DNA from: a virus
Reading direction: 5' to 3' (one strand)
DNA length: 64,000 nt
IMG/VR virus record: IMGVR_UViG_3300006139_000001
Positions 1 through 19,097 of this stretch are shown here, piece after piece; the first letter of the stretch is position 1, and the number at the start of each line of letters is the position of its first letter. The notes below the pieces were generated by a model, which saw nothing but the letters and a program-made list of their open reading frames with translations, was not told the DNA's origin and did not search any database. The translations under genes and the position numbers were made by a program.

Positions 1-10
1 TTGTAAAAAA

Positions 11-790
11 TTGGCTTCTTGGACGCATGAAATTTTAAGAATGGAATTCGCTGGTTCAGATAGATACCGTTTATCTGGTTCTACAAGCCAACGTGCAAAT
101 GCCTCGTTCTTTGCAAATAATGCCCTACCTTTGTTAAGAAAAATGAATCCAACTGCTACAAATGTTGGTGGATGGGATGAAAGTGAAATGCGTAGGTTCT
201 TAAACACTCGTGTTTATGAGGCATTACCATATAATTGGCAAGCTGCAATTAAACAAGTAAAAATTTCTGCTTCTGCTGGTAATCAGTCATCGGAAATCGT
301 TATATCAAATGACTATATTTATTTGGCTGCAAATAGAGAACTTGGTGGATGGACTTCTACTCCTTATATCAACGAAGGTGATGCAATTAGTTATTTCACT
401 ACTAATGCAAGCAGAATTAAATTCTGTGGATTAATAGTTGATGAAAATGCTCAGTTTATTACAGAAAGTTCAGACCCAACTCAGCTAACTTCTTATACTG
501 TAAAAGAGGGCGATATATGGATTAATACTAATAATTCAAGTGTTGGTTATTATTATATGACAGCCGATACAGTTGCAAAACATAGCCGAATTGGGTATAG
601 AGATATTTCATCTGCTGATAATATACCAGCTTCTAATGGCGGTATGTGGGTTCGTGCGTACTACTGGTGGGAGCGTTCTCCGAATGCCTCTACCTCCACT
701 AACTTTGTTTATGTCACCACCAACGGCAACCCGTACAACAACGGCAACGCATCTAGCGCCTATGGCGTGGCTTTCGGCTTCTCAATCTAA
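11..790 (+). CDS. DGR target protein. The C-terminal ~50 aa are encoded by the variable region; an in-frame ATG at 41 is a possible alternative start, and an in-frame stop at 4-6 confines the start to this window.
   Basis: ORF ends at 790 with ...WVRAYYWWERSPNASTSTNFVYVTTNGNPYNNGNASSAYGVAFGFSI. The last 142 nt are near-identical to the template repeat at 1782-1923. Asn/Tyr/Gly-rich C-terminus typical of C-type-lectin-fold variable proteins. Confidence 0.6.
   Translation: MASWTHEILRMEFAGSDRYRLSGSTSQRANASFFANNALPLLRKMNPTATNVGGWDESEMRRFLNTRVYEALPYNWQAAIKQVKISASAGNQSSEIVISNDYIYLAANRELGGWTSTPYINEGDAISYFTTNASRIKFCGLIVDENAQFITESSDPTQLTSYTVKEGDIWINTNNSSVGYYYMTADTVAKHSRIGYRDISSADNIPASNGGMWVRAYYWWERSPNASTSTNFVYVTTNGNPYNNGNASSAYGVAFGFSI
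642..783 (+). repeat. DGR variable region (VR)
   Basis: 142 nt aligning to 1782-1923 with 11 mismatches. Every mismatch sits at an adenine in the downstream copy (A to T/C/G at TR 1802, 1833, 1850, 1857, 1860, 1874, 1883, 1884, 1896, 1901, 1919). There are no non-A differences. Confidence 0.85.
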
Positions 791-829
791 TATCCCTTAA
801 AATCTTTAATTTGTTATAAAATACGGAAT

Positions 830-859
830 CGGCTACATTTGCGAGAGCAGGTGTAGCCG
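830..859 (+). promoter_or_regulatory. GC-rich hairpin ~40 nt downstream of the VR (cggctaca...tgtagccg, 8-bp stem). Candidate DGR homing-enhancing structure.
   Basis: Perfect 8-bp inverted repeat read directly. Its position relative to the VR end matches where DGR cruciform/hairpin elements occur. Confidence 0.45.
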
Positions 860-887
860 AAATTTATATGCACTGATAGGAGGATTT

Positions 888-1727
888 ATGTCAGTTCGAG
901 TAAATGATAGACATTTATCAGATATAGAATATGAGAACACATACGGAAAAATAAACGAATATATTTCTTTAAAATTAAAAGGATTGCCAAAAAGATACAG
1001 ATATTTTTTAGGAAAGCCGTTTAACAAAGTTCTTAATGACATCTATAGAGATATTATTGAACTTACAAATCTATATATGATTGGCAAAGGTAAAAGTATT
1101 GCTCGATATAGGCTGTGTGTAAAAATATTAAAGTCATTTGAAGAAGTTATCAGTTTATCTTATACATATTGGAATTTATCTGGGAATAACCAAAACAAAA
1201 TCAAATATGTTAATGCACGAGTTAGAATATTTTGGACTGACCTTATAAATAAGGAGATAGCATTAATCGTTGGTGTTATGGGTAAATGTAATTCCGATAA
1301 GAAAGTTGCAGTTAATATTCCTATTATGAAACCACATACAAAAAGTGAAATTAACGATGTTATATTTTTAAAAAAGTTATCTACTTTACAAGAGATAATT
1401 TATAAAAGAGCAATTCATATAAGTAAAGATTACCAAGATGCTAAAGTAGAAATGCTTGTGGAATTATCAAGAAGTGCATTATTTAATGCTACGCAAGGGA
1501 ACGATATTTTTGTCAATCAAGATGAACAGTTATACAGCAAGCGTAAAAATTTTATATCTAATGCACTTGGTGATTTATATGCTATGAATAGACCTATAAA
1601 GGAACTGAGTTTTAACGATATATTTAGCGAAGATGAATTAGAAAATGTATGTAATCTATCTACTGAATGTATTAAAATTTTGAAATCTATTCAAGAAACA
1701 GATAAGAGTTTATTTAATAAACAATAA
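888..1727 (+). CDS. Hypothetical protein between VR and TR (possible DGR accessory gene; larger than a canonical Avd)
   Basis: 279-aa AT-rich ORF with an RBS-like aggagg 7 nt upstream of the ATG. Its position between target gene and TR matches where avd normally sits. Confidence 0.4.
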   Translation: MSVRVNDRHLSDIEYENTYGKINEYISLKLKGLPKRYRYFLGKPFNKVLNDIYRDIIELTNLYMIGKGKSIARYRLCVKILKSFEEVISLSYTYWNLSGNNQNKIKYVNARVRIFWTDLINKEIALIVGVMGKCNSDKKVAVNIPIMKPHTKSEINDVIFLKKLSTLQEIIYKRAIHISKDYQDAKVEMLVELSRSALFNATQGNDIFVNQDEQLYSKRKNFISNALGDLYAMNRPIKELSFNDIFSEDELENVCNLSTECIKILKSIQETDKSLFNKQ

Positions 1728-1781
1728 GTAATAGATACGTTATGATTTGTGATAACTGCGTGTCGCCGTGTGGTAGGTGTC

Positions 1782-1923
1782 GTATGTGGGTTCGTGCGTA
1801 CAACTGGTGGGAGCGTTCTCCGAATGCCTCTAACTCCACTAACTTTGTTAATGTCAACAACAACGGCAACCCGAACAACAACAACAACGCATCTAACGCC
1901 AATGGCGTGGCTTTCGGATTCTC
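1782..1923 (+). repeat. DGR template repeat (TR). Non-coding RNA template; the ORF-track entries 1742-1936 and 1749-1955 are not genes.
   Basis: Adenine-rich (AAC-rich) copy of the VR. All VR/TR differences fall on TR adenines. Located immediately upstream of the RT gene. Confidence 0.85.
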
Positions 1924-2231
1924 TGAAAACAAGTAACCTGAACAAATCTGTTTAGACGCATAGTGTTCATATAAAAGGTGAAGATTTTAATAATAGAGTT
2001 AATTTTTTGGAGAAGGAAATTATAACGTTTCAGAAAACGATTTTCTGATAAATATACTTGTTCACATAACGAACAGCGCTTTATGACGGCGGCTATGATT
2101 GCAAAGCTGAAAAGTTTATTTTCAAATATGGGCTGAACTGTATATCATAAAGCCTATGCTTTGAAAGAGTTCTACGGATATACAAAATATAGAACCATAG
2201 TAGAGAGTCATTAGTTATTTTATGCAGGGAG

Positions 2232-3437
2232 ATGAGTGTTGATGACGTGAAGAAATTTAAAATAACACTTGAAGAAGCTATTACATATCAAAACTATTTT
2301 CATGCATTAAAAGAATGCAATAAAAATGTTAATTATAAATATAGTGTTCAAGAATTTGATTGTAATTGTGTTGTTCAAATTACCAACACTATAAATACAA
2401 TCTGTGATGGGCTAATCCCTAATGTAAAAAGTATAAACCCTATTACTATCTTTGAAAGAGGTAAGCAAAGAATTATAACTCCAATAGATATTAGTGATAG
2501 GATAACTCAAAAAGTATTATGCGATAATGTTTTAGTACCTTCTATTTGCCCTCATTTAATATTTGATAATGGTGCAAGTATGAAAAATAAAGGAACAGAT
2601 TTTGCTAGAAGGAGAGTTAATTCATTTATAGAAGATGCGAAGCGAGAGTATGGTGGCGAAAACTTATATGCTCTCGTTTTTGATTTTAAGAGTTATTTTG
2701 ACAGCATTCCTCACGAACAATGTTATAGAGTGTTAAAGAAATATCTATATGACGAAAGACTTGTTGACCTGACAATCGGCATTATTGAATCTTATAAATT
2801 GCGCAATATAGCAACAATAGAAGATGATGAACAGCGTAAAAAAGCTCTTGAAACATTGCATAATCATAAGGATGTCGGTATATGTCTTGGAAGCCAAATA
2901 TCTCAAATTATGGCGGTAGCCGTTCCAAATGAATTTGACCATTATATTAAAGATGTATTGAGATTAAAATATTATGAGCGTTATATGGATGATGGGATTA
3001 TTATTTTGAATGACAAAAATAAATTATTGCAACTTAAAATAGAACTTGGAGATTTGGCAAAAAAGTATGGTTTAAAATTTAATGATAAGAAAACCTATGT
3101 TACAAAGCTAACGAAAGGTTTTACATTTTTAAAAATAAAATACCATATTAATTCTGAAGGTAAAACAATTAAAAGGCTTGTGCGTTCTGGTATAGTGAGG
3201 GAACGTAGAAAACTAAAGAAGTTCAGGGTGAAAGTTGAGGATAGTGGTATGTCATTAGATGATGTGTATAATAACATACAGTCTTGGAATGCGCATTCTA
3301 AGATTGCAAAATGCTATACAACATCTAAAAATATGTTCGGATTATATAATGAGTATTTTGATGGGTATAAAATGACCCAAAAGTATTTTAAAGATAATCC
3401 AAATACAATACGTAAAAGAAAGGTGGTTAGAGTATGA
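2232..3437 (+). CDS. Reverse transcriptase (DGR-type)
   Basis: RT motifs YALVFDFKSYFDSIPH (motif 2), LGSQISQ (DGR-type motif 4), RYMDDGIIIL (YxDD catalytic motif). Positioned directly after the TR. Confidence 0.85.
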   Translation: MSVDDVKKFKITLEEAITYQNYFHALKECNKNVNYKYSVQEFDCNCVVQITNTINTICDGLIPNVKSINPITIFERGKQRIITPIDISDRITQKVLCDNVLVPSICPHLIFDNGASMKNKGTDFARRRVNSFIEDAKREYGGENLYALVFDFKSYFDSIPHEQCYRVLKKYLYDERLVDLTIGIIESYKLRNIATIEDDEQRKKALETLHNHKDVGICLGSQISQIMAVAVPNEFDHYIKDVLRLKYYERYMDDGIIILNDKNKLLQLKIELGDLAKKYGLKFNDKKTYVTKLTKGFTFLKIKYHINSEGKTIKRLVRSGIVRERRKLKKFRVKVEDSGMSLDDVYNNIQSWNAHSKIAKCYTTSKNMFGLYNEYFDGYKMTQKYFKDNPNTIRKRKVVRV

Positions 3438-4195
3438 AGTATTATAAGTTACTTAATGATAAAGAATTTGTTGGTGTTGGGACTTCTTTTGATTTAAGAA
3501 AATTCCAGCTAAAACATAGCATTCTTCTAACAAGTGATGATGAATCAGCTCAATATATTCAAATTAATGATAGATTATACAGAGATGATTGGTTTTCTCC
3601 TGTTATTACGGAGTTAATAAACTATACTACTGCTAAAATTATTGTAATTGAAAAAGAAGAATACGATACTTTATTTGAGGCAATAGAAACTGGTAAAGAA
3701 ATAGAAATTACAAATGACGAGCAAGATGTCCAAGAAGAATTGCCGCCAATTAACAAAGATGAGGAAGTTACTATTGAATATATTAAGGCAATTAAAAATG
3801 CAGAAATGAGTGCAATATGTAACAAGACTATCACGGGTGGTTTTGATGTTATTTTAAGTGATGGAGCAAGTCACCACTTTTCATTAACAATTCAAGACCA
3901 ATTAAATCTCATTACACTATCTTCTATGATTTCAGCAGGAGAAACAGTAATCCCTTATCACGCCGATGGTGAACTTTGTAAAGGCTATTCAGCCGAAGAT
4001 ATTACTACAATCATAAATACTGCCACTGCATTTAAAACATTTCATGTAACTTACTATAACTCGTTAAGAGCATATATTGAATCAATAGATGATATTTCTG
4101 AAATAAATAGTATTGTATATGGTATGGATATTCCAGAAAAATATCAGTCTGATATTCTAAAGACATTACTGATGAAAAAATTACAGGAAAATTAA
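3434..4195 (+). CDS. Hypothetical protein
   Basis: 253-aa ORF overlapping the RT stop by 4 nt (atga), i.e. translationally coupled. No recognisable motif. Confidence 0.4.
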   Translation: MKYYKLLNDKEFVGVGTSFDLRKFQLKHSILLTSDDESAQYIQINDRLYRDDWFSPVITELINYTTAKIIVIEKEEYDTLFEAIETGKEIEITNDEQDVQEELPPINKDEEVTIEYIKAIKNAEMSAICNKTITGGFDVILSDGASHHFSLTIQDQLNLITLSSMISAGETVIPYHADGELCKGYSAEDITTIINTATAFKTFHVTYYNSLRAYIESIDDISEINSIVYGMDIPEKYQSDILKTLLMKKLQEN

Positions 4196-4196
4196 T

Positions 4197-4646
4197 ATGA
4201 AAATTAACAAAACAATTCTTTTGTTTTTAGTTGGATATTGTACATATATCGCAGTTGAAGTTACATATAGAAACATTTCATACCCAATTATGGGTGTTTG
4301 TGGCGGATTGGTAATAATATTACTTGATAAAATTAATGATAATATTTCTTGGGATATAGATATAATTATTCAAGGATTATGTGGTTCAGCGCTTGTTACA
4401 TTTTTTGAATTAGTAATTGGTGAAATTGCTTTGCATACAGAATTGTTGCCAGTTATGTGGAACTATTCAAATGTTCCTTTAAACTTTGACGGAGTAATTT
4501 GTTTTCCGTTTAGTGTTATATGGTTCTTTTTATCTTTGCTTGCTATATTTCTTGCAGATGCAATAAACTATTATATATTAGATGAACCACAAACTCCATA
4601 CTATAAATTATTTGGGAAAACTATTATCAAATTTAAAGAAAAGTGA
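4197..4646 (+). CDS. Small integral membrane protein (about 4 TM segments; holin-like?)
   Basis: 149 aa with several hydrophobic stretches (ILLFLVGYCTYIAV, GVCGGLVIILL, FPFSVIWFFLSLLAIFLA). Confidence 0.45.
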   Translation: MKINKTILLFLVGYCTYIAVEVTYRNISYPIMGVCGGLVIILLDKINDNISWDIDIIIQGLCGSALVTFFELVIGEIALHTELLPVMWNYSNVPLNFDGVICFPFSVIWFFLSLLAIFLADAINYYILDEPQTPYYKLFGKTIIKFKEK

Positions 4647-4665
4647 TTTATTATCATTTATAATT

Positions 4666-4706
4666 GGGGGTTACGAGACTAACAATCTTGTAACCCTATT
4701 TTTTTG
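4666..4706 (+). terminator. Rho-independent terminator-like hairpin plus T-run after the membrane-protein gene. Also a candidate att core (imperfect 9-bp inverted arms ggttacgag / cttgtaacc).
   Basis: ggttac(N15)gtaacc followed by tattttttt. Confidence 0.4.
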
Positions 4707-4891
4707 CGCTATTCGTTTGTAAAATATTCTATTAAGTAATAGGAGATTTTATAAAAGAATACCATATCTTGTGTTTCTTCAATATGTAATCGGCAGATAT
4801 TGAAGTGCTGGCTATCAAATTTTAATCTCCTTAATTAAGTGAATCCCCTGTTTCACATAGTTAAGGATATTGCCTACTAAAAAAAATATAA

Positions 4892-6502
4892 TCAGTCAAT
4901 CTTCCCGATAAAGCGGTAGAATATCTCAACCTCTTGCTCCTTGCCACCTTCCGTTTCTACAGATTCATGTACTATAATCTTTTCGATTAAAGCATTGAGC
5001 AATGGTGCTGTAAGTTCTTGTGGGTCAGTGTACTGCTTTATAAGAGCAATCCACTTTTCCTTGTTACTTGCGTTCTCTTTTTCTTCTTGAAGTTTGGCTG
5101 ACAATGTTTCAACGAGTTCATGAAGTTCATCTTGCTCTTGCTGGTATTTAGCTGTTAGCATATTGAAGTTTCTCTCATTGATTTTGTCTTGTAACCTATC
5201 TTCATAAAGTTTCGCAAAGAGCGTATCTAACTCTCTTAGTCTTTTCTCAGATTTCTTTATATCTGAAATTGCTCTTTGCCGGGAGGAAGCAAACTCTTTA
5301 TCGCCACTTTTTATAAGGTATGCGAGTAGCTTATCTTCATCTTTCTGAGCTATAGCCGTCCAATAACGAATTCTTGATAAAACATACTCATACAATGTGT
5401 CGTAACGAATATAGTGCATTGAACAGAAAACTTTGCCCATTTGACCATATTTGCTACACGAGAAGTAACTATATGGGTTTTTGTTTTGAGTATTCGTACC
5501 AAACCTCATTGACCATCCGCAATCAGCACACTTAACCAATCCAGCGAATATTTGTTGTTGAGTGTTTTTCATGTTCCTACGTCTTGACTCTATCATACCT
5601 TGGATTTGTTTAAATTCTTCTTTGCCAATAATAGGTTCATGTGTATTCTCGATTCTTAACCATTCGCTTTTAGGTTTTCTCACACGTTTCTTATTCTTAA
5701 ACGAAATAGTACTTTGCTTATTGTGAATTGTATTGCCGATATAGGTTTCATCCTTCAGAATGTGTTTAACCTGAGCAATCGTCCACATATATCGTTTGTT
5801 TTCTGGCTGTCCATCAAAAATGTGTGCAAATGTGCCATCTTTCTGATAGTTAATCCAAGCAGGTGTTGGTACTTGCTCTTTAATAAGAGCCTTAGTGATT
5901 TTTGCCGCACCAATTCCACTTAATGCGTATGTGAAGATTTTCTCAATAATCCATTTGGTTTCTTCATCGACGATGAGCTTTCCAACTGAGTCTGGACTTT
6001 TCTTATATCCAATTGGTGCATAAGCACAATAGCGTTCGCCCATTGCAAATTTGGTTTGAAATGCCGCATGAACCTTTTTGCTAATGTCTCTTGCATACCA
6101 TTCGTTGATGATATTTTTAAATGGCGCAAATTCGTTATCGCCATTAAGACTGTCCACACTGTCGTTTATAGCAATGAAGCGCACATTATGGCTTGGAAAA
6201 TACAGCTCTGTATATTGACCAGTGAGGATATAATTTCTACCAAGTCGAGAAAGGTCTTTCACGATTACACAGTTAATCTTACCATCCTCAATATCTTGAA
6301 TCATACGCTGAAAATCTGGTCGGTCAAAATTTGTACCAGACCAACCATCGTCAACATATTCGTCATAGACATTTATATGGTGGTCAATAGCATACTTTCT
6401 TAGCATTTGGCGCTGAGTGATAATACTTGAACTATCACCTTGCAATTCATCGTCTCTACTCAATCGTAGATAGAGTCCAGCATCATAAGTGGGTTCTGTC
6501 AT
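4892..6502 (-). CDS. Large serine recombinase (serine integrase)
   Basis: N-terminal resolvase domain YLRLSRDD...GTNFDRP...VIVKDLSRLGRN, followed by a long recombinase and zinc-ribbon region (CADCGWSM...CSKY) and a coiled-coil C-terminus. 536 aa. Confidence 0.85.
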   Translation of the reverse strand: MTEPTYDAGLYLRLSRDDELQGDSSSIITQRQMLRKYAIDHHINVYDEYVDDGWSGTNFDRPDFQRMIQDIEDGKINCVIVKDLSRLGRNYILTGQYTELYFPSHNVRFIAINDSVDSLNGDNEFAPFKNIINEWYARDISKKVHAAFQTKFAMGERYCAYAPIGYKKSPDSVGKLIVDEETKWIIEKIFTYALSGIGAAKITKALIKEQVPTPAWINYQKDGTFAHIFDGQPENKRYMWTIAQVKHILKDETYIGNTIHNKQSTISFKNKKRVRKPKSEWLRIENTHEPIIGKEEFKQIQGMIESRRRNMKNTQQQIFAGLVKCADCGWSMRFGTNTQNKNPYSYFSCSKYGQMGKVFCSMHYIRYDTLYEYVLSRIRYWTAIAQKDEDKLLAYLIKSGDKEFASSRQRAISDIKKSEKRLRELDTLFAKLYEDRLQDKINERNFNMLTAKYQQEQDELHELVETLSAKLQEEKENASNKEKWIALIKQYTDPQELTAPLLNALIEKIIVHESVETEGGKEQEVEIFYRFIGKID

Positions 6503-6762
6503 ACAATACCTCCTTATAATAGAACCCGCACTTACAATATTCTGCCTTTTAGTATTATATCATAAATGCGGGCGTTTTTCAATATTTATTATTTACATTT
6601 GTTTTTCTGATGTAATTGGTTCTTTTGTAGAAGTTGATTTAGCTTCCCTGCTTATAGCATCTTTAATAACATCTTCTAAACTTTTGCCATGTTTATTAAA
6701 GTGTTCTGAAATGATGATTTTTGTTCCGTTATGTATAAAATATTGTTTATTATTCTGTTCGC

Positions 6763-7155
6763 TCATATCCGTTTGCCCCTATCTGATAGACTCAAAAGAA
6801 ATATCGGAATCCCATTTTGGGCAGATTCGTAATCATTGAATACTCTAAGTTTTAATCCGCCTTTACTGTATAAAACAACGTCGGGAGTAGGATTTTGATG
6901 ATTACGGGTAAAGCAGTATGCGCATTTCTGCTTGTTATTGATTCTATACAATGTCATATGTTCTACTTTTGGTTGTTTGTTTACATAGGATATAACATAA
7001 TACTTCCTTCCGATTATCATCTGTTTTGAGCAGTATTCTTCTATGATTTGTAAAGCATCAGAAAGTCCAACGACATAGCTCCGTTGTTCGTCTGTCATGT
7101 TCGCTGAACTTTCAAGTGCAATTTTGCTTTTAAGGATTTCTATAATTTCCTGCAT
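6763..7155 (-). CDS. Hypothetical protein
   Basis: 130-aa ORF upstream of the integrase. No motif recognised. Confidence 0.35.
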   Translation of the reverse strand: MQEIIEILKSKIALESSANMTDEQRSYVVGLSDALQIIEEYCSKQMIIGRKYYVISYVNKQPKVEHMTLYRINNKQKCAYCFTRNHQNPTPDVVLYSKGGLKLRVFNDYESAQNGIPIFLLSLSDRGKRI

Positions 7156-7586
7156 TAACTCTTACCTGTACTTCCAAATCCACCACGGTCTGTATCTGCA
7201 AGATGTTCAACAGTCTGGAATTCAATTTCAGGCTGTTTCTTTACAATACGGAACTGGCAAATTCTATCGTTTTTGTGGATAACAGTATCTCTCAAAGCAA
7301 ATGCTGGGAAGCGCCACTGGTCATTATCGCCACAATAACTTTCATCAATAATGCCACAATGATTTGTCTGAATAACGCCAAAATTCTTAAATGTGCTGCT
7401 ACGAGGAACAACATGGGCTTCATAACCACTAGGAAGAATCATGCCGATACCAAGTTTGATAAGTTTGAATTCACCCTGCTTTAACTCAACTGTTTCAGCA
7501 GAACGAAGGTCAATCCAGTCACCCTTATCAATCTTTTCAATTCTTTCAATTTCGTCATTAAAATACTTAATCTTAATGGTTTCCAT
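7155..7586 (-). CDS. dut: dUTP pyrophosphatase (trimeric dUTPase)
   Basis: Motifs VVPRSSTF (motif II) and [10 protein letters not shown] (motif III). 143 aa. Confidence 0.8.
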
Positions 7587-7591
7587 TATGT

Positions 7592-8128
7592 TTACACTCC
7601 TAAATTTTTATGAATTACATAATCAGCAATTTTGTCATATTCTTCAACATTGCCTTTTACTGTCTTATATTTGATATTTCTACCTTGAAGTAGTTTTTCT
7701 AAAGGCTCTTTAAGGGAATCACTTTCGGCTTCGGTTTGGAGTCTACCTTTAGGGTTATACGGTTTATCTCTTAGCAGAAGATAAGAAATGTTATCAAATG
7801 AGTTAAAGCAATTCATTATGGTTTTATTGAAATCTTCACCAAGAACTTTGCTTTTGTTGTAAAAGATTGAAAGTGGTAAAGGGCTATCTGTAATGATTAC
7901 ATCTACCTTATCTCTGCATCTGCTCATTCTATAAAACTGTTTACCAAATAAGTAACACTGGTTATCTGGTTTGAAAACCTCTGAGTTTTCTTCCCAAACC
8001 TTATCTTTTGCGAATTCTGTAATGAGTTCTGCATTGATACCAGCCATTTTGATTTTACTGAATATGTACGCTGCACCAGTTGATTTACCGGCTGAAGGTA
8101 CACCGAAAAGATTTACTACTATCATCAA
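7592..8128 (-). CDS. P-loop NTPase / nucleotide-kinase-like protein
   Basis: Walker [11 protein letters not shown] near the N-terminus. 178 aa. Sits in the nucleotide-metabolism block. Confidence 0.5.
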
Positions 8129-8141
8129 TTATCCTCTTTGC

Positions 8142-8669
8142 TTAGTTGTCATATAAAACAACAGTATCGTTCTCAAATGATTTTTGTACATCAATAACTC
8201 TCTGATTTAGGCTACCGACCCACAAAACTTGTTTATGATTTATGTCTTGTTTATCAATCTGAAATTGCCCATCTGCAACAACATCTGATAATGCAACGGT
8301 CATTAGTCTCGTTAAAGCATATTGCGATGTTTGATTTATAATGTTTTCCCATTTATAACCAGTGAAAATCCAAATCTTCTTCTCTGGATATAAAGATTTA
8401 AGTCTTTGGATAATATGAAATACTGTTTCAACATTCTCGTCTGCAAGTGGTTCTCCGCCTAAAAATGAGATTCTTTGAATATACGGTTTATTAGCCAACT
8501 CAATAAATTTATCTTCAATTTCTGGTGTCCATTCATATCCACCACTGAAATCCCATGTTTCCTGATTAAAACATCCTTGACAATGGAAGTGACACCCTTG
8601 GACGAACAGGGAGATTCCCACTCCCTGCCCGTTTGAGATGTCCATTTTGCGGATTAGTGAATACCTCAT
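8142..8669 (-). CDS. nrdG: Anaerobic ribonucleotide reductase activating protein (radical SAM)
   Basis: CHFHCQGC (CxxxCxxC radical-SAM cluster motif). Directly downstream of nrdD, with a start/stop overlap at 8669. Confidence 0.8.
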   Translation of the reverse strand: MRYSLIRKMDISNGQGVGISLFVQGCHFHCQGCFNQETWDFSGGYEWTPEIEDKFIELANKPYIQRISFLGGEPLADENVETVFHIIQRLKSLYPEKKIWIFTGYKWENIINQTSQYALTRLMTVALSDVVADGQFQIDKQDINHKQVLWVGSLNQRVIDVQKSFENDTVVLYDN

Positions 8670-10894
8670 TAGACATCACCATCACTGTACGCTTTGTCAT
8701 CAATATGTAATACTCTCTCTTTGATTTCCTGTGTTCTACCCTGATTCCAGAAGTTAGTCCCGATATAGCCACACGTTCTTCTTGCAACACTCATCTTGTT
8801 CTGGTCACGGTTGCCACAATTTGGGCATTCCCAAATGAGCTTCCCAGAGGTTTTATCGGTAATGATTTTAATTTCCTTGTCATAACCGCAAACCATGCAG
8901 TAGTCGCTCTTAGAGTTGAGTTCTGCATACATAATATGATTGTAGATGAACTGCATTAACTGAATAACCACTTGAAGGTTGTCATTCATGTTCGGGATTT
9001 CAACATAGCTAATAGCACCACCAGGGGATAGCTTCTGGAATTTTGCTTCGAGTTCAAGTTTATCAAATGCGTTGATTTCCTCAAACACAGGAACATGATA
9101 TGAATTTGTAATATAGTTTCTATCGGTAATCCCATCGACTTCGCCAAAGCGCTTCTTTAGGCATTTTGCGAATTTATATGTAGTACTTTCGATTGGAGAA
9201 CCATACAAGCTATAATCAATATGTTCAGCTTCTTTCCACTGAGTACATTTATCATTAAGTGCTTGCATTACCTTCAGACCAAATTCTTCACCAATACCAC
9301 CATCTGTATGACTATTACCAGTCATATACTTCACGCATTCGTATAAACCAGCATAACCAAGGGAAATTGTGGAATATCCGTTATGAAGTAACTTATCAAT
9401 CGGTTCACCTTTTTTAAGTCTTGCAAGTGCGCCATGCTGCCACAGAATTGGAGCAACATCTGAAGGAGTTCCTTCAAGTCTCTTATGACGTAGCTGTAGT
9501 GCCTTATGGCAAAGTTCTGTACGGGTTTCAAACAGTTTCCAGAATGTGTCCATATCTTTGCCAGATGAAAGCGCAATATCAGGTAGATTGATAGTTACAA
9601 CACCCTGATTAAATCTTCCATAATACTGAGGTTTGCCCTTTTCGTTGATATAAGGAGTAAGGAAACTTCTGCAACCCATGCAGGGATAGCAATTACCATT
9701 TCCATTCTTATCAACCTTGTATTCAAGCATTTTCTTTTCAGAGATGTAATCTGGCACAAGTCGTTTTGCAGAACACTCAGCGGCAAGTTTAGTTAGATAG
9801 AAATACTTGCTATTCTCGTATACATTATCTTCCTCCAGAACATAGAGAAGTTTTGGAAATGCGGGAGTAACCCATGCGCCCTGTTCATTCTTTACACCCT
9901 GAATACGCTGCCTTAGTACTTCTTCGATAATAAGTGCGAGGTCTGCTTTTGTTCTATCATCTTTAGCTTCGCCGAGATACATAAATACAGATAAGAAAGG
10001 TGCTTGACCATTTGTTGTCATTAGTGTAACAACCTGGTACTGAATTGTTTGAACACCCTTGTTGATTTCATCTCTTAGGCGCTTATCAACAATATCCATA
10101 TATTCATTATAATCATCTTCGCTTTGTGGTTCATGTCCAGTAAATTCAATATATTCGGCTAATACCTGTTCTTTGATTTTCTTTCTGCTGACTTCAACAA
10201 ATGGAGCAAGATGAGTAAGGCTAATACTCTGACCGCCATACTGACTTGAAGCTACCTGTGCGATAATCTGAGTAGCGACATTACAAGCCGTTGAGAAACT
10301 ATGCGGTTTTTCAATCATAACATTGCTAATAACCGTACCATTTTGCAACATATCTTCAAGATTAATTAAGTCACAGTTATGTGTAGCATTCTGACCAAAA
10401 TAGTCCATATCGTGAAAATGGATAATACCATCTTCATGAGCTTGAATAATGTCTGGTGTAAGCAGCATTCTCATACTAATATCAGTGCTTTCGATACCAG
10501 CCATATAATCTCTTTGAGTAGTTACAAGCATTGCATTCTTATTGGAGTTTTCTTCATTCCAATATTCACTATTATGTTCTAACAACTCCATAATAGATTC
10601 ATCGGTTGAATTTTTTACATCTCTTTGAAACTCTCTAACTCTACGATAACCCTCATAAGATTTTGCAGTAAGCACTTCGCCTTTTGCAATCAGCTTATCA
10701 AAAACCATTTCTTCTACCATGTAGATGTCAAGGTCATTAACACCTTGCACTTCCGTCTCGATTTCACTAGCAATATTTCTTGCGATTTCTGGTTTAATAA
10801 TACCACTGCCAAATGTCATCGCCTTCATGATAGCTTCATAAATCTTTTCTTTGTTAAATGGGGCTTCGGAACAATCTCTTTTAATAATGTTCAT
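8669..10894 (-). CDS. nrdD: Anaerobic ribonucleoside-triphosphate reductase (class III RNR)
   Basis: 741 aa. C-terminal zinc ribbon CMVCGY...CPNCG and glycyl-radical motif RRTCGYIG. N-terminal ATP-cone-like region. Confidence 0.9.
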   Translation of the reverse strand: MNIIKRDCSEAPFNKEKIYEAIMKAMTFGSGIIKPEIARNIASEIETEVQGVNDLDIYMVEEMVFDKLIAKGEVLTAKSYEGYRRVREFQRDVKNSTDESIMELLEHNSEYWNEENSNKNAMLVTTQRDYMAGIESTDISMRMLLTPDIIQAHEDGIIHFHDMDYFGQNATHNCDLINLEDMLQNGTVISNVMIEKPHSFSTACNVATQIIAQVASSQYGGQSISLTHLAPFVEVSRKKIKEQVLAEYIEFTGHEPQSEDDYNEYMDIVDKRLRDEINKGVQTIQYQVVTLMTTNGQAPFLSVFMYLGEAKDDRTKADLALIIEEVLRQRIQGVKNEQGAWVTPAFPKLLYVLEEDNVYENSKYFYLTKLAAECSAKRLVPDYISEKKMLEYKVDKNGNGNCYPCMGCRSFLTPYINEKGKPQYYGRFNQGVVTINLPDIALSSGKDMDTFWKLFETRTELCHKALQLRHKRLEGTPSDVAPILWQHGALARLKKGEPIDKLLHNGYSTISLGYAGLYECVKYMTGNSHTDGGIGEEFGLKVMQALNDKCTQWKEAEHIDYSLYGSPIESTTYKFAKCLKKRFGEVDGITDRNYITNSYHVPVFEEINAFDKLELEAKFQKLSPGGAISYVEIPNMNDNLQVVIQLMQFIYNHIMYAELNSKSDYCMVCGYDKEIKIITDKTSGKLIWECPNCGNRDQNKMSVARRTCGYIGTNFWNQGRTQEIKERVLHIDDKAYSDGDV

Positions 10895-10927
10895 TCTAAC
10901 ACTCCTGTAATACTTTTTCTGATTTAA

Positions 10928-11323
10928 TTAAACAGACAAAAAACTTTGAATGTAATCAACAGCACTTTCATAGTTTGGTTCGAGATGAAAGATTACAGAT
11001 TTAATGTGCGGTTTTAATTCTGTATTTTGTTCTCCAATACCAATAACAAAAATGTGTTTATCGCCAAATGTATTTATAGAGTCGATGATACCAATTTCAT
11101 AAAGGTTGTTGTCATCAACTTCTTTTACATTTACAATTACAATATCACTGTTATAAATTTGCCGCTTATTCCATTCTACAAATTCTTTATCTTCTAATCC
11201 TACCTTATACAAAGGTGGGTGGATAAATGAAACCGCATTGCCACCTTGCAGATAGATTTCTTCAACCTGTCTACGCCATACCATATCATTTCCACCCATC
11301 GTATAAACCTTAATTCTTTTCAT
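10928..11323 (-). CDS. Nucleoside 2-deoxyribosyltransferase-like protein
   Basis: 131 aa, MKRIKVYTMGG...NSDIVIVNV...IGIIDS pattern resembling the NDT/DUF4406 fold. Context is nucleotide metabolism. Confidence 0.45.
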   Translation of the reverse strand: MKRIKVYTMGGNDMVWRRQVEEIYLQGGNAVSFIHPPLYKVGLEDKEFVEWNKRQIYNSDIVIVNVKEVDDNNLYEIGIIDSINTFGDKHIFVIGIGEQNTELKPHIKSVIFHLEPNYESAVDYIQSFLSV

Positions 11324-11912
11324 CTATGATACCCATATCAAATAGTGAAAGTTGTTCGTACTCAGGTTCGGGGGATTCTGTTTTAAGAATCTCTTGGAAA
11401 CACTTTAATACTTGGTTCTCATCCATATGGAACTTTGTATTATCAATTACATAATCGACTTCCTGGATTACTTCATCAAACTGCCCAACATCGGATAAAT
11501 TTCTTCTATATGCTTCATCAATATTATCACCACGAGCTAAGATATTGATTAGTCGAGAACGACGGTCAACATACACATAGATAGAGGTCACTTTATAGCC
11601 AAGTCGCTTTAGCGCTCTAAGACCAGCCGGAGTAAGAATAGCAATAGCATTTTCAGACTCACAATCAGTCTTTGCAGTACCATAAGACCAATCTCTATAT
11701 TTTGCGTGTTCAACGAAGAAGCCACGCTTTACAAATTCATCAAAGGTAGCTTGTGGAATGAAATGGTAATCAACTCCATCAACCTCTCCTTCTCTCATTG
11801 GTCTTGTGGTATATGTAACAATTTTGTGGTATTTCGGATTTGCTTCAATCAACATCTTCAAAAGAGTTGTTTTGCCAGAAGCAGATTCTCCAAGAATTAC
11901 AATCATACACAT
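11310..11912 (-). CDS. gmk: Guanylate kinase
   Basis: P-loop GESASGKTT plus the canonical GMP-kinase motif TTRPMREGEVDGVDYHF...YGT. Confidence 0.75.
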   Translation of the reverse strand: MCMIVILGESASGKTTLLKMLIEANPKYHKIVTYTTRPMREGEVDGVDYHFIPQATFDEFVKRGFFVEHAKYRDWSYGTAKTDCESENAIAILTPAGLRALKRLGYKVTSIYVYVDRRSRLINILARGDNIDEAYRRNLSDVGQFDEVIQEVDYVIDNTKFHMDENQVLKCFQEILKTESPEPEYEQLSLFDMGIIDEKN

Positions 11913-11920
11913 TCCCTTTC

Positions 11921-12268
11921 TTAGTCATATATTTCGGAAATATCAACTTCCAATGCATCTGCTTTTTCTGTAATGGTTAGGTCATCAAACACATCTTGGA
12001 GATATTCTTTTGCACAACCTTCGCAATAATCTTCTCCATCAATCCTATATGTAGCACCTTCTTTACCACATGAATCGCAATAATCTCTTGATACGTTTAT
12101 GTATGGGCATGAATTACCTAGACATCCCATTTCAGTAGGACAGCCCACACATTCATTTTCGTACTTACGCATTGGGCAACTCAATATCATCGAATACAAC
12201 AGGGATTCTCTGCTGTAGTTCTCTGCATAGTGGGATTGCAACTTCTCTAATCTGAGGATGAGCATCAT
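11921..12268 (-). CDS. Cys-rich small protein (zinc-ribbon-like). True start probably internal, since the 5' end overlaps thyX.
   Basis: Multiple CxxC pairs (CVGCP, CDSCG, CEGC). Confidence 0.3.
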   Translation of the reverse strand: MMLILRLEKLQSHYAENYSRESLLYSMILSCPMRKYENECVGCPTEMGCLGNSCPYINVSRDYCDSCGKEGATYRIDGEDYCEGCAKEYLQDVFDDLTITEKADALEVDISEIYD

Positions 12269-12845
12269 TCGTAGTTCTCAGCTTAAAGAATGTTCTCCAC
12301 TCTCTATAGTTAGCTGTAATAGTGATATTTGTTTTGGTTGAATTAGGAAGAACAGAACGAGCAATCTGCGGAGGTGCGCCAAGTTCAATCATTTTCATAT
12401 AATGTCTCTCAGCATCTTCCATAGCTCTCAACCACTCAGAATAAATTTCTCCAATAAGGTCTGCATCGAAGTTCTTCATCTTATTGTCGAGATTGATACC
12501 GCCAATTAGGTCGATTACAGCAATCTCACTACCATACTTATCTTTAGCATAGTTTACATATCTGGTGCTTTCTTGTGCAAAACTTGCAATTCTATGTCTT
12601 ACCATTTCGTGTGATACACCACGGTCACAAGTGAAAATAACAGACAATGTACTATGCTCAATCATAGCCTCATGATGGTTATTGATAAGCATTTTTACGA
12701 AACGTTTTGCACTTTCGCCATCTTCCGTAATCTTATCTTCTGACTTATAGCAAACACGTCCAATTCTTTCAATGTGTTTTAACTCATTAACGCCACCATC
12801 TGAAATTGGCGTAAGAATCTCATACCCTGCCTTTAAAATATTCAT
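12165..12845 (-). CDS. thyX: Flavin-dependent thymidylate synthase
   Basis: ThyX signature RHRIASFAQESTRY (RHRx7S). 226 aa. Confidence 0.8.
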   Translation of the reverse strand: MNILKAGYEILTPISDGGVNELKHIERIGRVCYKSEDKITEDGESAKRFVKMLINNHHEAMIEHSTLSVIFTCDRGVSHEMVRHRIASFAQESTRYVNYAKDKYGSEIAVIDLIGGINLDNKMKNFDADLIGEIYSEWLRAMEDAERHYMKMIELGAPPQIARSVLPNSTKTNITITANYREWRTFFKLRTTNDAHPQIREVAIPLCRELQQRIPVVFDDIELPNA

Positions 12846-12854
12846 CTAACACCC

Positions 12855-13085
12855 TCATTTCTTATTCGCTACACCCAATGACCGTTCACAAAAGTCAATA
12901 ATATCTTGAAGCCTCTCGTGTTCAGTTTTTGTGTTGTCTTTTGCCTTTTCGAGAACAACTCCGCAAATTGCCTTGCTACCAGCAAGTAAACCGGAGTCTC
13001 TGACTTTTTGCATTTGCTCTCTAATTTCTTTGTTAAGCTGCTTTTCTTGGCTTTTATTCATGTGATACCTCTTATTGTTGCTCAT
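12855..13085 (-). CDS. Hypothetical protein
   Basis: 76-aa ORF only. Confidence 0.3.
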   Translation of the reverse strand: MSNNKRYHMNKSQEKQLNKEIREQMQKVRDSGLLAGSKAICGVVLEKAKDNTKTEHERLQDIIDFCERSLGVANKK

Positions 13086-13533
13086 CGTACATCTTTGCGG
13101 TATTTATAAAAATCTGTTTAAGCTGAGAAGTCATATTAAACCGAGTCGTATTCACATCAATGCTTTTGAGAAGATTGCCATCATTATGTCGCATAGAAGA
13201 TGCTTTCCAATCACAGAACATCTCAACGAGGTCAACAAGAGTCATGTCATTGATGCCTTTTTCAAAATGCTCTGGATGATGTCTATAATTAGCATAATGA
13301 TGTTGTAATGCTGGTTTCATTTCTTCAAGAAATTGCATATATTCTTCGCTGCCATATGTAGTTTCTGCAAGTTTTGGAGTGTACTCAGCAAAGATTTCTA
13401 TTTCCGGACTTTCAAGTTTAAGTTTATCATGGTCTACTGCTCTGGTAATAAGTTTGCTTACAAATACCCTAATGACTTCTCTGACTTTTTCAATATGCTT
13501 GATTGTCTCAACTTGGCACTCCGCAATAGTCAT
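13072..13533 (-). CDS. Hypothetical protein (all-alpha; possibly an NTP-pyrophosphohydrolase-like fold)
   Basis: 153-aa ORF with no definitive motif. Mentioned because a MazG-like enzyme would be expected if the PurZ hypothesis were true; MazG identity is not established. Confidence 0.3.
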   Translation of the reverse strand: MTIAECQVETIKHIEKVREVIRVFVSKLITRAVDHDKLKLESPEIEIFAEYTPKLAETTYGSEEYMQFLEEMKPALQHHYANYRHHPEHFEKGINDMTLVDLVEMFCDWKASSMRHNDGNLLKSIDVNTTRFNMTSQLKQIFINTAKMYDEQQ

Positions 13534-13739
13534 AAGTTGCCTCCTATTTTATATACTTGTTGTTGAGCCTAACAGCGTGTTCGTTGCCTTATGCAATCAC
13601 TGTTGCCATCAAATGATGTCTCAGGGTTACTGGTTTGCTCAACCCTACTGGAAACCCTTTTTCGGATATTTTGTGTGTGGGAAACAAATAAAACAGCAAT
13701 TTTATTTGCATTCATTTGTTTTTCTGATTTACACAATCT

Positions 13740-13788
13740 ATTATAACATACTCCGCTCAATCTGTCAATGCTTTTTCTGATTTAATTC
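13740..13788 (-). promoter_or_regulatory. Consensus sigma-70/sigma-A promoter (TTGACA-17-TATAAT, minus strand) preceded by the conserved AATTAAATCAGAAAAA element
   Basis: rc(13763-13768)=TTGACA, 17-nt spacer, rc(13740-13745)=TATAAT. Conserved motif at 13771-13788. A second motif copy (variant) at 13721-13735. Confidence 0.6.
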
Positions 13789-15002
13789 TTCAATTCAATA
13801 AGATAATGGATAGTACATTGTTCTTCCTTATAGACAATTATTTCATCATTACGGAGCATACTTCCTTCGTGGGCATGTAAGCAATTTGCGCCAGGACAAT
13901 TTCTCTGTAGTGCTTCGTAGTTGAAATTATAATACTTGCTATCAAAAGAATACACATCATACGGCTTTCCATATGCGACATCCATTAAAGCCATGAACCC
14001 TGAGTTTGAACTACCTCTTGCCCAATAGCTACCAGATAGACTTGTGTAACCAAGTGACTTTCTTGCCTTTGGCGCATAATAAATACCATAACCAAACATC
14101 TTGCCAGTAATCACAGCATTTGTTGGTTTAAGCATCAAACCACTATTGATAATTGACCACCAGTTCTCATTGCGACTACCATGGAATAGTAACTTAGTAT
14201 CTTTGATATTATTTGCTTTTACAAATTCATCGTAACGTTTCTGAGTTTTAAGATTTTTAACTCTCCACGCTTTATAGAACTTATCTGCACAAGAACCAAG
14301 TGCCGCTTTAATTGTTGCAATGTCGTTGTTGTCGCATTCCTCAAATTCAAGACCAAGCTGTTCAAGGATAGTATAATCACATTTTTCAGTTTCTTTTTGC
14401 TCAGTCTCGTCGATAACCTGATGCTGTACTACCTGACCTCTCATAACGTCAAGAAGGTCTTGCTCTTTATCAATAATCTTCGCAAAATCATCTTTCGAGT
14501 TTGCCAGATAATACTTAACATTACTCATCTTGCGAGGAATCGTAACGAATAACTTTAGTAGAATGTCATTGAATTCGTCAACTGTTTTTGCATCAAGCAA
14601 ACTGGTCAAAATATTCTGCGCTTCATCAACCATTGCTTGTGTAACCTTATTGGATGAAATTGTATAGTTATCACTAATGGCTTTCTTAGCCATACTCTGC
14701 AATCTTTCAACAATCTCTGCGATTACTTTATTTTCGATTTCTCTGTATTTGCTATCAGTCTTAGGCTTCTCAACTTGTATTAAATCTTCAACTAAATCAC
14801 TTTGGTCAACATATCCTTTGCGTATTTTCTCGTTATATTTTGAATCCCATTGGCTCATAGGATATGTTCGGCGTTGTGGACTGCTCCCTACTCTACCGTA
14901 TTCGGCAGTCCAACTATCGCCATTAGGAATCTGTTTGTAATACTTATTGTTATTTGCAGAAGCCGTAACCATAACTAAATAGCGTGGTTTATAATCTGCC
15001 AT
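13782..15002 (-). CDS. Poly(ADP-ribose) polymerase homolog (WGR domain, helical regulatory domain, PARP catalytic domain)
   Basis: N-terminal WGR-like NNKYYKQIPNGDSWTAEYGRVGSSPQ. Catalytic H-Y-E triad intact: LLFHGSR, GKMFGYGIYYAP, RNDEIIVY. 406 aa. Confidence 0.8.
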   Translation of the reverse strand: MADYKPRYLVMVTASANNNKYYKQIPNGDSWTAEYGRVGSSPQRRTYPMSQWDSKYNEKIRKGYVDQSDLVEDLIQVEKPKTDSKYREIENKVIAEIVERLQSMAKKAISDNYTISSNKVTQAMVDEAQNILTSLLDAKTVDEFNDILLKLFVTIPRKMSNVKYYLANSKDDFAKIIDKEQDLLDVMRGQVVQHQVIDETEQKETEKCDYTILEQLGLEFEECDNNDIATIKAALGSCADKFYKAWRVKNLKTQKRYDEFVKANNIKDTKLLFHGSRNENWWSIINSGLMLKPTNAVITGKMFGYGIYYAPKARKSLGYTSLSGSYWARGSSNSGFMALMDVAYGKPYDVYSFDSKYYNFNYEALQRNCPGANCLHAHEGSMLRNDEIIVYKEEQCTIHYLIELKN

Positions 15003-15014
15003 AACAACAACTCC

Positions 15015-15452: not shown

Positions 15453-15477
15453 AATTCATTCCTCCAAAAATATTTTG

Positions 15478-19085: not shown

Positions 19086-19097
19086 ATTACACTACCT

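Follow-up and report, generated by a model that had tools for sequence, protein, structure and literature searches.

Does the left end of this viral sequence carry a working diversity-generating retroelement (DGR), and in what does it depart from known systems? The window analysed here is a 64,000-nt stretch of IMG/VR virus record IMGVR_UViG_3300006139_000001, read on one strand, with the element at positions 1-3437. We conclude, with a probability of about 0.9, that the element is a functional DGR of the BPP-1 type, situated where the tail and lysis genes end the genome of a large, low-GC phage (its tail/lysis end). The phage is of a large gut/rumen type, and the DGR is ordinary in mechanism save for its helper protein, a fused pair of Avd-like modules. 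[quoted passage not shown] This arrangement held: the mismatches are adenine-only, among solved structures the RT is closest to the Bordetella DGR RT, and eight related loci are alike. The BPP-1 DGR (mtd-avd-TR-brt) shares the order of target VR, hairpin, accessory gene, TR, spacer and RT. BPP-1 is a 42-kb podovirus, whereas the phage here is large and low in GC (related contigs reach 127-160 kb).

The repeats lie at the following positions:

642 to 783, plus strand: VR, the last ~47 target codons, ending 4 nt before the stop codon (788-790)
762 to 783, plus strand: invariant, IMH-like VR 3' end, ATGGCGTGGCTTTCGGCTTCTC, with C778 opposite TR A1918
1782 to 1923, plus strand: TR, a repeat of the VR with 38 adenines

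Ungapped alignment of the two segments (offset 1140, 142 nt) gave 11 mismatches, at VR/TR positions 662/1802, 693/1833, 710/1850, 717/1857, 720/1860, 734/1874, 743/1883, 744/1884, 756/1896, 761/1901 and 778/1918. The TR base was A at 11/11 of these, with T, C or G opposite in the VR (P ~1.5e-7 by chance, hypergeometric; 38 A in the 142-nt TR). The realignment agrees with the earlier description of two near-identical 142-nt segments whose 11 differences are all adenines in the RT-side copy, and BPP-1 likewise has adenine-only TR/VR differences. Homology ended abruptly on both sides of the pair, which falls within the numerical DGR criteria of PMC11792537 (at least 90 nt, at least 5 mismatches, at least 75% at A). 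A search of both strands of the 64-kb window found no further VR-like copies of the TR. The GC content of the TR was 49%, compared to ~34% for the genome. In the VR frame, 36 of the 38 TR adenines occupy codon positions 1-2. The TR had been called AAC-rich, and we counted 13 AAC codons together with 3 AAT.

All 11 mismatches had been taken as the signature of adenine mutagenesis. All do sit at TR adenines, but one of them looks different in kind. The 22-nt invariant VR end has a single fixed C/A difference from the TR (C778/A1918), which is synonymous in the window (GGC/GGA). Because each of the nine related loci with a readable base here has the same C in VR and A in TR, the mismatch is best read as an IMH/IMH* marker rather than a mutagenesis event. 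BPP-1 has an invariant VR 3' end unlike the TR (IMH/IMH*), and the VR end here is consistent with such an arrangement; in the window the putative IMH and IMH* differ at one position only.

Downstream of the TR, two genes follow:

2232 to 3437, plus strand: DGR RT, 401 aa, with LGSQISQ (motif 4) and YMDD; Pfam RVT_1
3434 to 4195, plus strand: neighbour gene outside the DGR core, encoding a 253-aa tail-fibre-like protein; Pfam DUF4376; its start overlaps the RT stop

The DGR-type motif 4 and the YMDD reported earlier were both found in the first of these ORFs. Its product matched phrog_1423 (E 6e-64). The best PDB match was 8ub7_A, the Bordetella DGR RT (E 1.5e-12), with the next matches near 1e-3; other RT classes thus trailed 8ub7 by nine orders of magnitude. 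Pairwise comparison with its homologue bRT of BPP-1 gave 25% identity over 300 aa (E 4e-19), in an alignment spanning LGxxxSQ, YMDD and the thumb motif SW.AH/SW.GH. In a tblastn search against known phages, the best 16 of 79 records included the DGR carriers Roseburia phage Shimadzu and Faecalibacterium phage Roos (the latter described as DGR-carrying in PMC11792537), and Bordetella phages were among the 79. These data show that the RT is related to DGR RTs, with DGR-clade motifs encoded adjacent to the TR. The product of the neighbour gene matched phrog_1348, a tail fiber protein (E 4.5e-17), and this gene was syntenic in nearly all related loci examined.

The repeat that would be rewritten closes the target gene:

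2 to 790, plus strand: 3' part (262 codons) of the DGR target gene, cut by the left window edge, with a C-terminal DUF6273 domain

We confirmed that the VR forms the last ~47 codons of this gene. The "250-aa target", earlier judged short for a tail fibre, proved to be an artefact of the window edge. Frame 2 is already open at nt 2, and window residues 2-262 of the target match residues 417-674 of a homologue 674 aa long at 64% identity, so the gene runs past the left edge. Its 5' part and the remainder of the tail module lie beyond the window. The C-terminus matched Pfam DUF6273 (E 4e-16), and the TR-encoded peptide falls on profile positions 127-164 of 172. DGR targets with a DUF6273 domain have been documented before, the VR lying at the C-terminus of that domain (PMC11792537, PMC10743442), and the fold of DUF6273 is C-type-lectin-like (PMC10743442). 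The BPP-1 target is Mtd, whereas that of the window has DUF6273, and targets in the related loci are 674 to about 2,700 aa long. The target is probably a giant, probably tail-associated receptor-binding protein with a diversified C-terminal tip. We infer the receptor-binding or tail role from the domain family, from published work, and from the tail-fibre-like and lysis genes nearby.

A DUF6273 target with the VR at the domain C-terminus is also present in the DGRs of Firmicute phages from the gut (Faecalibacterium phages Lelie, Roos, Pioen and CP11; Roseburia phage Shimadzu; PMC11792537). Their RTs share 27-32% identity with the window RT and figure among its best listed matches in known phages. 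The Shimadzu layout is that of the window (tail fibre, Avd, TR, RT, then lysis genes and integrase), but its Avd is a single 136-aa protein compared to the 279-aa tandem described below. The Shimadzu and Faecalibacterium phage RTs are only about 32% identical to the window RT, and the window phage backbone has no close match. The DGR itself is ordinary, a tropism-switching cassette of a gut or rumen phage whose target domain is known, and the main value of its analysis therefore lies in confirmation and correction.

The region around the TR contains a structured RNA:

1738 to 1748, plus strand: upstream strand of the predicted 'stop' duplex, CGTTATGATTT; partner 2017-2027
1919 to 1929, plus strand: TR 3' end and first spacer bases, TTCTCTGAAAA; predicted template:primer duplex with 2004-2014
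1924 to 2231, plus strand: 308-nt spacer separating TR from RT, a structured cis RNA
2004 to 2014, plus strand: spacer strand of the predicted template:primer duplex, A2014 being followed by GG
2017 to 2027, plus strand: spacer strand of the predicted 'stop' duplex, AAATTATAACG; 2 nt past the primer strand
2030-2048, 2058-2076 and 2084-2210, plus strand: spacer helices, of which 2084-2210 encloses 2102-2163, 2128-2157 and 2169-2195

RNAalifold predicted 55 pairs in the spacer, 36 of them with compensatory changes; the covariation sets are small (8-9 related sequences). Spacer cells were paired at 94.9%, compared to 38-49% when the partners were slid. No Rfam family matched the spacer. The helix joining 1919-1929 to 2004-2014, also predicted by RNAalifold, was 92% paired with compensatory changes in 5/11 pairs. 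The 11 pairs between 1738-1748 and 2017-2027 were 98.9% paired over 8 loci, and 5 of them were compensatory. Both duplexes together were 95.5% paired with 10/22 pairs compensatory, a value that 0/500 shuffles reached.

The same geometry is seen in the BPP-1 RNA, where a duplex of the TR 3' end with the spacer is followed 2 nt later by one between the spacer and a segment upstream of the TR; these are the template:primer and 'cPRT Stop' duplexes of the bRT-Avd-RNA cryo-EM structure (bioRxiv 10.1101/2023.10.23.563531). By analogy, 1738-1748:2017-2027 would correspond to the avd:Sp 'cPRT Stop' duplex of BPP-1, and A2014 is the predicted priming nucleotide, from comparison with BPP-1 Sp A56-G57. 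The BPP-1 spacer is 140 nt long, whereas that of the window is about 300 nt and has extra covarying helices. The spacer family offers clean covariation support for the BPP-1-defined duplexes in a distant Firmicute-phage lineage, and it also predicts a priming nucleotide. These findings could help the reprogramming of DGRs from low-GC hosts.

A further structured element follows the VR:

829 to 860, plus strand: hairpin 3' of the VR, with a 14-bp stem (9 perfect bp, two G.T pairs, 3 bp) and a GAGA tetraloop

A GC-rich hairpin with an 8-bp stem had been reported 40 nt past the VR stop. The hairpin is there, but it has 9 perfect bp (14 with the two G.T pairs) and begins 38 nt past the stop codon; the BPP-1 hairpin has 8 bp. 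A stem of 12-17 bp, mostly with a 4-nt loop, was found at the same site in 10/10 family loci. The stem sequences differ among these loci, and 12/12 aligned pairs showed compensatory changes. The G.U pairs are valid on the sense strand or RNA only, so an RNA role is possible. The hairpin also fits a loose terminator pattern, and T runs follow it in two related loci (L012 and L014). Its role could accordingly be to terminate transcription of the giant target gene or to stabilise the 3' end of its mRNA, and not to act in DGR target recognition. We consider this unlikely: in most loci the tail is A-rich with no T run, and the position just past the VR together with the 4-nt G-rich tetraloop resembles the BPP-1 hairpin, which Wu et al. 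described as a GC-rich inverted repeat downstream of the IMH (PMC5758913). The two roles can also coexist. We count the hairpin among the standard DGR parts of this element.

The mechanism we propose would run as follows. A transcript of the accessory gene end, the TR and the 308-nt spacer would fold into the conserved structure, in which 1919-1929 would pair with 2004-2014 to give the template:primer duplex and, two nt on, 2017-2027 would pair with 1738-1748 just upstream of the TR, as the counterpart of the BPP-1 'cPRT Stop'. The RT and the accessory protein would prime from the spacer, at the predicted nucleotide A2014, and the RT would copy the TR into cDNA with misincorporation opposite adenines. 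This cDNA would replace the VR from 642 to about 761 at the target gene 3' end, directed by the IMH-like VR end (762-783; C778 vs TR A1918) and the hairpin. As an outcome, about 16 AAY-coded residues would vary on the ligand-binding face of the DUF6273 (C-type-lectin-like) domain. This domain forms the C-terminal end of a large receptor-binding protein that is probably associated with the tail.

The accessory gene is the part that sets this element apart:

888 to 1727, plus strand: accessory gene between VR and TR, 279 aa, two Avd-like four-helix bundles in tandem

The sequence-only reading had suggested an accessory factor different from Avd. We found instead tandem Avd-like bundles, each half having Avd-sized relatives in the Avd slot. 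The N-half (residues about 1-140) has a pI of 9.7 and the C-half (residues 141-279) a pI of 5.7, with 9.2 for the whole protein. Each half has four long helices and the four-helix-bundle fold of Avd (about 110-130 residues, superposable on bAvd). Fold likeness alone is weak evidence for Avd identity, because four-helix bundles are common. The gene lies between the target and TR-RT in the window and in every RT-containing related locus examined. Stand-alone relatives of both halves (134-142 aa) fill the Avd slot of other DGRs and align to one another (E 4e-11), and the Avd of Roseburia phage Shimadzu aligns with the C-half (E 2.5e-4). Rank, gene position and these stand-alone intermediates together identify the 279-aa protein as two paralogous Avd-like four-helix bundles fused in one chain.

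An unrelated helical phage protein in this position, with a DGR that is independent of Avd or has its Avd encoded elsewhere, is highly improbable given those relatives and the conserved gene position. It would account for the absence of any curated Avd model above threshold for the protein (NF033474, the NCBIfam Avd model, at about 16.3 bits with a cutoff of 80; PF22296 at 13.7 bits with a cutoff of 40), for the lack of a match to PDB sequences even with a profile search, and for a non-significant hhalign comparison with bAvd; the four-helix bundle is also a generic fold. The Avd-model matches in the N-half do lie in register.

Read as a fused Avd pair, the protein can be set beside the known family. 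The Avd fold of BPP-1 is also that of the window protein, and the four long helices of the Avd/S23 (23S rRNA-intervening-sequence) family (Pfam PF22296/PF05635 fold; PDB 4dwl, 8ub7_B, 2gsc, 2rld) are present in both halves. The N-half is basic like bAvd (pI 9.55), and Avd proteins are strongly basic (mean pI about 9.5; PMC5758913); this half probably retains the nucleic-acid and RT-binding role of Avd. Unlike the Avd/S23 family, the window protein has two bundles fused in one chain, an acidic C-half, and sequence similarity under every curated threshold. The BPP-1 Avd is a single 128-aa protein, and Avd is characterised by a homopentameric barrel to which the RT binds. Wu et al. found avd genes to be similar in length and reported one DGR with two avd genes (PMC5758913).

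The accessory family forms 187 clusters at 50% identity, mostly full length. We found no relatives of the 279-aa protein in the INPHARED phage collection, no entry for the tandem in BFVD, and no description of it in a literature search. The tandem, conserved in over a hundred sequence clusters, is one of two features that take this DGR beyond the ordinary, the spacer RNA being the other. Cryo-EM of bRT-Avd gives Avd a structural role, positioning the template:primer duplex (bioRxiv 10.1101/2023.10.23.563531). A doubled Avd in which one half is acidic can therefore usefully serve as a natural experiment in Avd function. We raise, as a tentative possibility that we think less probable than its opposite, that the fused double Avd marks a distinct DGR ribonucleoprotein architecture, in which the RT works with an oligomer of tandem modules (a basic N-bundle that binds RNA and RT, and an acidic C-bundle). 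If so, the Avd barrel would differ in stoichiometry or geometry. The oligomer might also suit the longer (~300-nt) spacer RNA, or have gained a new role, for example in regulation or in the handling of target DNA.

We examined nine related loci, one of which (L015) ends before the TR. The order target-accessory-TR-RT was present in 8/9. In those 8 loci, TR/VR differences were A-only in 6 and A-biased in 2, with one non-A difference each. In the window, 10/37 mutable TR adenines differ, below the 12-25 differences of the relatives, and the VR in L001, the only other contig covering that of the window element, is identical. Such values could be expected of a fossil, in which the parts are kept, diversification has ceased, and the 10-11 A-specific differences are relics. 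We regard this as very unlikely. The RT ORF is intact with its YMDD, as are the accessory ORF, the covarying RNA helices and the hairpin, and the TR retains its AAY design. A sister lineage is, moreover, demonstrably turning over its VR. L004/L006 and L005 are 2-5 nt apart over 6.5-7.7 kb. Their TRs are identical, but their VRs differ at 22 positions, 21 of which are TR adenines. Because near-identical sister phages share a TR and differ at these 22 VR sites, their sequences indicate that this lineage is actively diversifying.

The two 142-nt near-identical copies that the sequence-only reading had described were confirmed at 642-783 and 1782-1923. They aligned without gaps at an offset of 1140 and differed at 11 of 142 positions, and identity dropped off at once outside both ends of the repeat. 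Realignment also upheld the claim of adenine-only mismatches: all 11 were A in the downstream copy (TR) and T, C or G in the upstream copy (VR; P ~1.5e-7, hypergeometric; 38 A per 142 nt in the TR). The TR codons included 13 AAC and 3 AAT, and codon positions 1-2 of the VR frame held 36 of the 38 TR adenines. Judged on sequence, this composition is that of a template of a diversity-generating retroelement (DGR). We found no second VR-like copy of the TR within the 64-kb window. A 64-aa ORF at 1742-1936 and a 79-aa ORF of the related locus L020 were rejected as genes because each is the TR read in frame.

The last of the 11 mismatches, C778 in the VR versus A1918 in the TR, is a synonymous difference in the third position of its codon. 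At the corresponding site, the VR had C and the TR had A in 9/9 related loci where it was readable (...G[C]TTCTCAATCTAA vs ...G[A]TTCTCTGA...). This difference is probably not mutagenesis, because a randomly mutagenised adenine would not become C every time. The invariant 22-nt VR end (762-783), with its one fixed difference, is best read as the IMH facing its TR counterpart, IMH*. On this reading, 10 substitutions are left in the diversified stretch, among 37 TR-adenine positions upstream of 762.

The accessory protein encoded between VR and TR had 48 close homologues, all metagenomic, and an exhaustive profile search with it returned 187 cluster representatives at 50% identity. We compared the window with nine related loci encoding the 279-aa protein (metagenomic contigs L004-L007 and L009-L015, near-duplicates counted once). 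The gene order in these loci was target (DUF6273), accessory, TR and RT, with L015 stopping short of the TR. Downstream of the RT there was usually a gene for a DUF4376 tail-fibre-like protein, then one for a small holin-like membrane protein, often one for an endolysin, and one for a large serine recombinase. A TR/VR pair with differences at TR adenines was present in 8/8 loci containing the TR, with one exception each in L004/L006 and L011. At these non-adenine exceptions, the VR had G opposite a TR T in L004/L006 (L004 ~7843) and opposite a TR C in L011.

L004/L006 and L005, which come from different samples, had identical TRs, and their target genes differed by only 2-5 nt in 6.5-7.7 kb. 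Their VRs differed at 22 positions, 21 of them at TR adenines. Such VR differences beside the same TR provide direct evidence for recent mutagenic retrohoming in the family. The one further contig covering the window element's VR had an identical VR; that the window element is itself currently active is inferred from its relatives.

L004 also carried a ~1.45-kb IS with a DDE_5 transposase (L004:8845-10296; compare L005:8838-8900), terminal inverted repeats CAGCAGTTTCCAAGTTTT and CACCAGTTTCCAAGTTTT, and a ~10-bp target duplication TGATATATAA. The IS has the accessory stop codon directly on one side and the 'ACGTTAC' RNA element upstream of the TR directly on the other; it splits the accessory gene from TR-RT, and the cis RNA elements stay intact. 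The L004 VR is the same as that of the IS-free L006.

The target had been described as a 250-aa protein. This did not hold, as the frame is open from nt 2 and the gene is cut by the window start. From its second residue, the truncated product aligned to residues 417-674 of a 674-aa related-locus protein (64% identity), and the gene at the same position in other related loci encodes 1,548 to ~2,709 residues. The short target is therefore an artefact of the window start. Its C-terminal domain matched Pfam DUF6273 (E 4e-16), with the TR-encoded peptide at the C-terminal end of the profile. Gut phages, among them those of Faecalibacterium, have DUF6273 as a C-type-lectin-like DGR target domain with a C-terminal VR (PMC11792537, PMC10743442). 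In the homologue search, relatives of the truncated target were mostly contig-end fragments. Short-read contigs with this element (for example L001, 4,958 nt) ended within the target gene, ~600 nt upstream of the VR, and the break point of these independent contigs was near the window start (window 1-43). Together, these breaks and the many contig-end homologues suggest that the target gene has a repeat, or varies between strains, in a way that breaks assemblies.

The RT ORF was recovered as reported (2232-3437, 401 aa, with LGSQISQ and YMDD), and its product matched RVT_1 and phrog_1423. Samples with exactly this RT included ERR2497918, SRR28895761, SRR20792760 and the JGI source of a 160-kb contig. 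Against all PDB sequences, its top relative was the Bordetella DGR RT (8ub7_A, E 1.5e-12), followed by Cas6-RT-Cas1 and Drt3a (E near 1e-3). [quoted passage not shown] In a tblastn search of 50,697 phage records, the best 16 of 79 matches included DGR-carrying phages. Among the best were Roseburia phage Shimadzu (32%), whose annotated Avd-RT cassette we inspected, and the DGR-carrying Faecalibacterium phage Roos (PMC11792537); Bordetella phages were within the 79.

The accessory ORF was likewise present as described (888-1727, 279 aa). We did not find support for the proposal that it encodes a factor different from Avd, since its fold and its stand-alone relatives read as two Avd-like modules. 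The AlphaFold model (24 homologues; pLDDT 87) was all-helical, its long helices forming two sets of four, and the C-half modelled separately (residues 141-279) reached pLDDT 82. In BFVD, the only meaningful matches were single-domain "Avd-like protein" entries covering half of the model. The exhaustive search also yielded 117-167-aa proteins matching the N-half only or the C-half only. In the contexts fetched, the DGR had a DUF6273 target, and such a half-size protein was its lone accessory, encoded at the Avd position. The related loci L018/L019 encode a 134-aa C-half-like protein and L020 a 142-aa N-half-like protein, and an alignment of these two stand-alone proteins spanned their full length (E 4e-11). 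Phage Shimadzu's annotated Avd (136 aa) aligned to the C-half at helices 3-4, in register (E 2.5e-4). The halves had different pI values: the N-half is basic (9.7; bAvd, the BPP-1 accessory protein, 9.55) and the C-half is acidic (5.7).

Curated databases (Pfam, NCBIfam, PHROGs) gave only sub-threshold or spurious matches to the accessory protein and no curated model. There was no match in PDB sequence searches, by single sequence or profile, or by tblastn against the 50,697 phage records. The sole sequence hints to Avd models placed N-half residues 20-63 in register with profile positions 8-51. Profile comparison by hhalign was not significant for the accessory family versus bAvd or for the N-half versus the C-half (E 0.18). 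Because the direct comparison of the halves was not significant, their paralogy rests on the intermediates and the fold. On these, the accessory protein is most simply read as two Avd paralogues brought together by fusion or duplication. The CH1, MSL and HRDC accessory classes (PMC5758913) were rejected for this ORF, given the predicted Avd fold in both halves and no match to any such domain. Known avd genes are similar in length, and one DGR carries two avd genes (Wu et al., PMC5758913). Within the searchable literature, we saw no account of a tandem Avd.

A hairpin reported after the VR was verified at 829-860, 38 nt past the stop codon, with 9 perfect bp. Its stem reaches 14 bp with two G.T pairs and its loop is GAGA. 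We observed a 12-17-bp stem between the target stop and the accessory start in 10/10 loci of the family (window included). Stem sequences varied among loci, and loops were usually 4 nt (GAGA, GTGA, GGGA, GGTA). In a loop-anchored alignment, 12/12 aligned pairs had compensatory changes; the hairpins were chosen by folding, so that the percentage paired is partly by construction. The hairpin matches the GC-rich inverted repeat downstream of the IMH in BPP-1 (PMC5758913). It also meets a loose terminator pattern. Its G.U pairs hold on the sense strand only, and it may have an RNA role.

The TR-RT spacer (285-308 nt) was conserved across the family. RNAalifold predicted 55 pairs in it, 35-36 with compensatory changes, and 94.9% of cells were paired, compared to 38-49% when partners were slid 1-3 columns. 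Two helices were notable:

1919-1929 with 2004-2014: the TR 3' end and first spacer bases pair with the spacer
2017-2027 with 1738-1748: the spacer, 2 nt further on, pairs with a segment upstream of the TR

The segment at 1738-1748 sits just past the accessory stop codon. Taken jointly over 8 loci, the two helices were 95.5% paired with 10/22 pairs compensatory, and 0/500 shuffles reached the observed values. In the bRT-Avd-RNA structure, a TR:Sp template:primer duplex is followed by two nt and then by an avd-3'-end:Sp "cPRT Stop" duplex (bioRxiv 10.1101/2023.10.23.563531). The predicted arrangement in the window, including the 2-nt gap, is the same. By analogy, the priming nucleotide would be A2014, which precedes GG in the manner of Sp A56-G57, and cDNA copying would begin at or beside A1918. 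Such a start fits position 1918 never being transferred to the VR. An Rfam scan of window 1-7000 (E up to 1) returned no family.

Overall, the sequence data indicate a genuine DGR with the working of the BPP-1 element, and the evidence from the sister lineage makes it probably active. The kind of DGR and the DUF6273 target domain are already known; what is new is the tandem Avd-like accessory, along with a well-supported RNA model for this lineage.

Elsewhere in the window, the minus strand carries a block of phage genes for replication and nucleotide metabolism. The features outside the DGR were:

6763-22287 and 43483-56743, minus strand: replication/nucleotide-metabolism module
Minus strand, nucleotide metabolism: dUTPase, NrdG, NrdD, guanylate kinase, ThyX, adenylosuccinate synthetase
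Minus strand, replication: PolIII alpha, PD-(D/E)XK nuclease, DnaG-type primase, DnaB helicase, NAD-dependent DNA ligase
13782-15002, minus strand: 406-aa protein with WGR and PARP catalytic domains (PF05406, PF00644)
35338-36648, minus strand: RNA ligase
36957-38168, minus strand: CCA-adding or poly(A)-polymerase-family nucleotidyltransferase
39119-40171, minus strand: RlaP-family nucleotidyltransferase
61965-62993, all minus strand: nine tRNA genes (Glu, Trp, Pro, Gly, Leu, Ser, Ile, Ala, Arg)
4197-4646: holin-like gene (PF06541)
4667-4697: strong terminator directly after the holin-like gene
4892-6502: convergent serine recombinase

The minus-strand genes at 35338-40171 are a possible RNA-repair cluster. 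GC was ~30-39% outside the final, tRNA-rich 2 kb and showed no host-like break, and related contigs reached 127-160 kb. A megablast search of window 1-25000 against the 50,697 phage records (INPHARED) matched only in the NrdD region (74% identity, MT835469, a 176-kb human faecal phage). By this comparison, the phage is without a close relative in INPHARED. Scans with the accessory profile found one locus among genome contigs, in a rumen Clostridiales MAG, and one among viral contigs, on an IMG/VR contig.

The GH25-CHAP-SH3 endolysin of L004-L006 and L009 was missing at 4197-6502 in the window, and likewise in L013. A ~1.97-kb segment with a 519-aa serine recombinase gene was inverted between L005 (14390-16354) and L006 (13228-15193), at 99.5% identity in reverse orientation; these contigs, from different samples, were otherwise near-identical. 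The segment may be invertible, or its orientation may be an assembly artefact at a phage end. The WGR-PARP protein within the replication block has a eukaryote-like poly(ADP-ribose) polymerase architecture.
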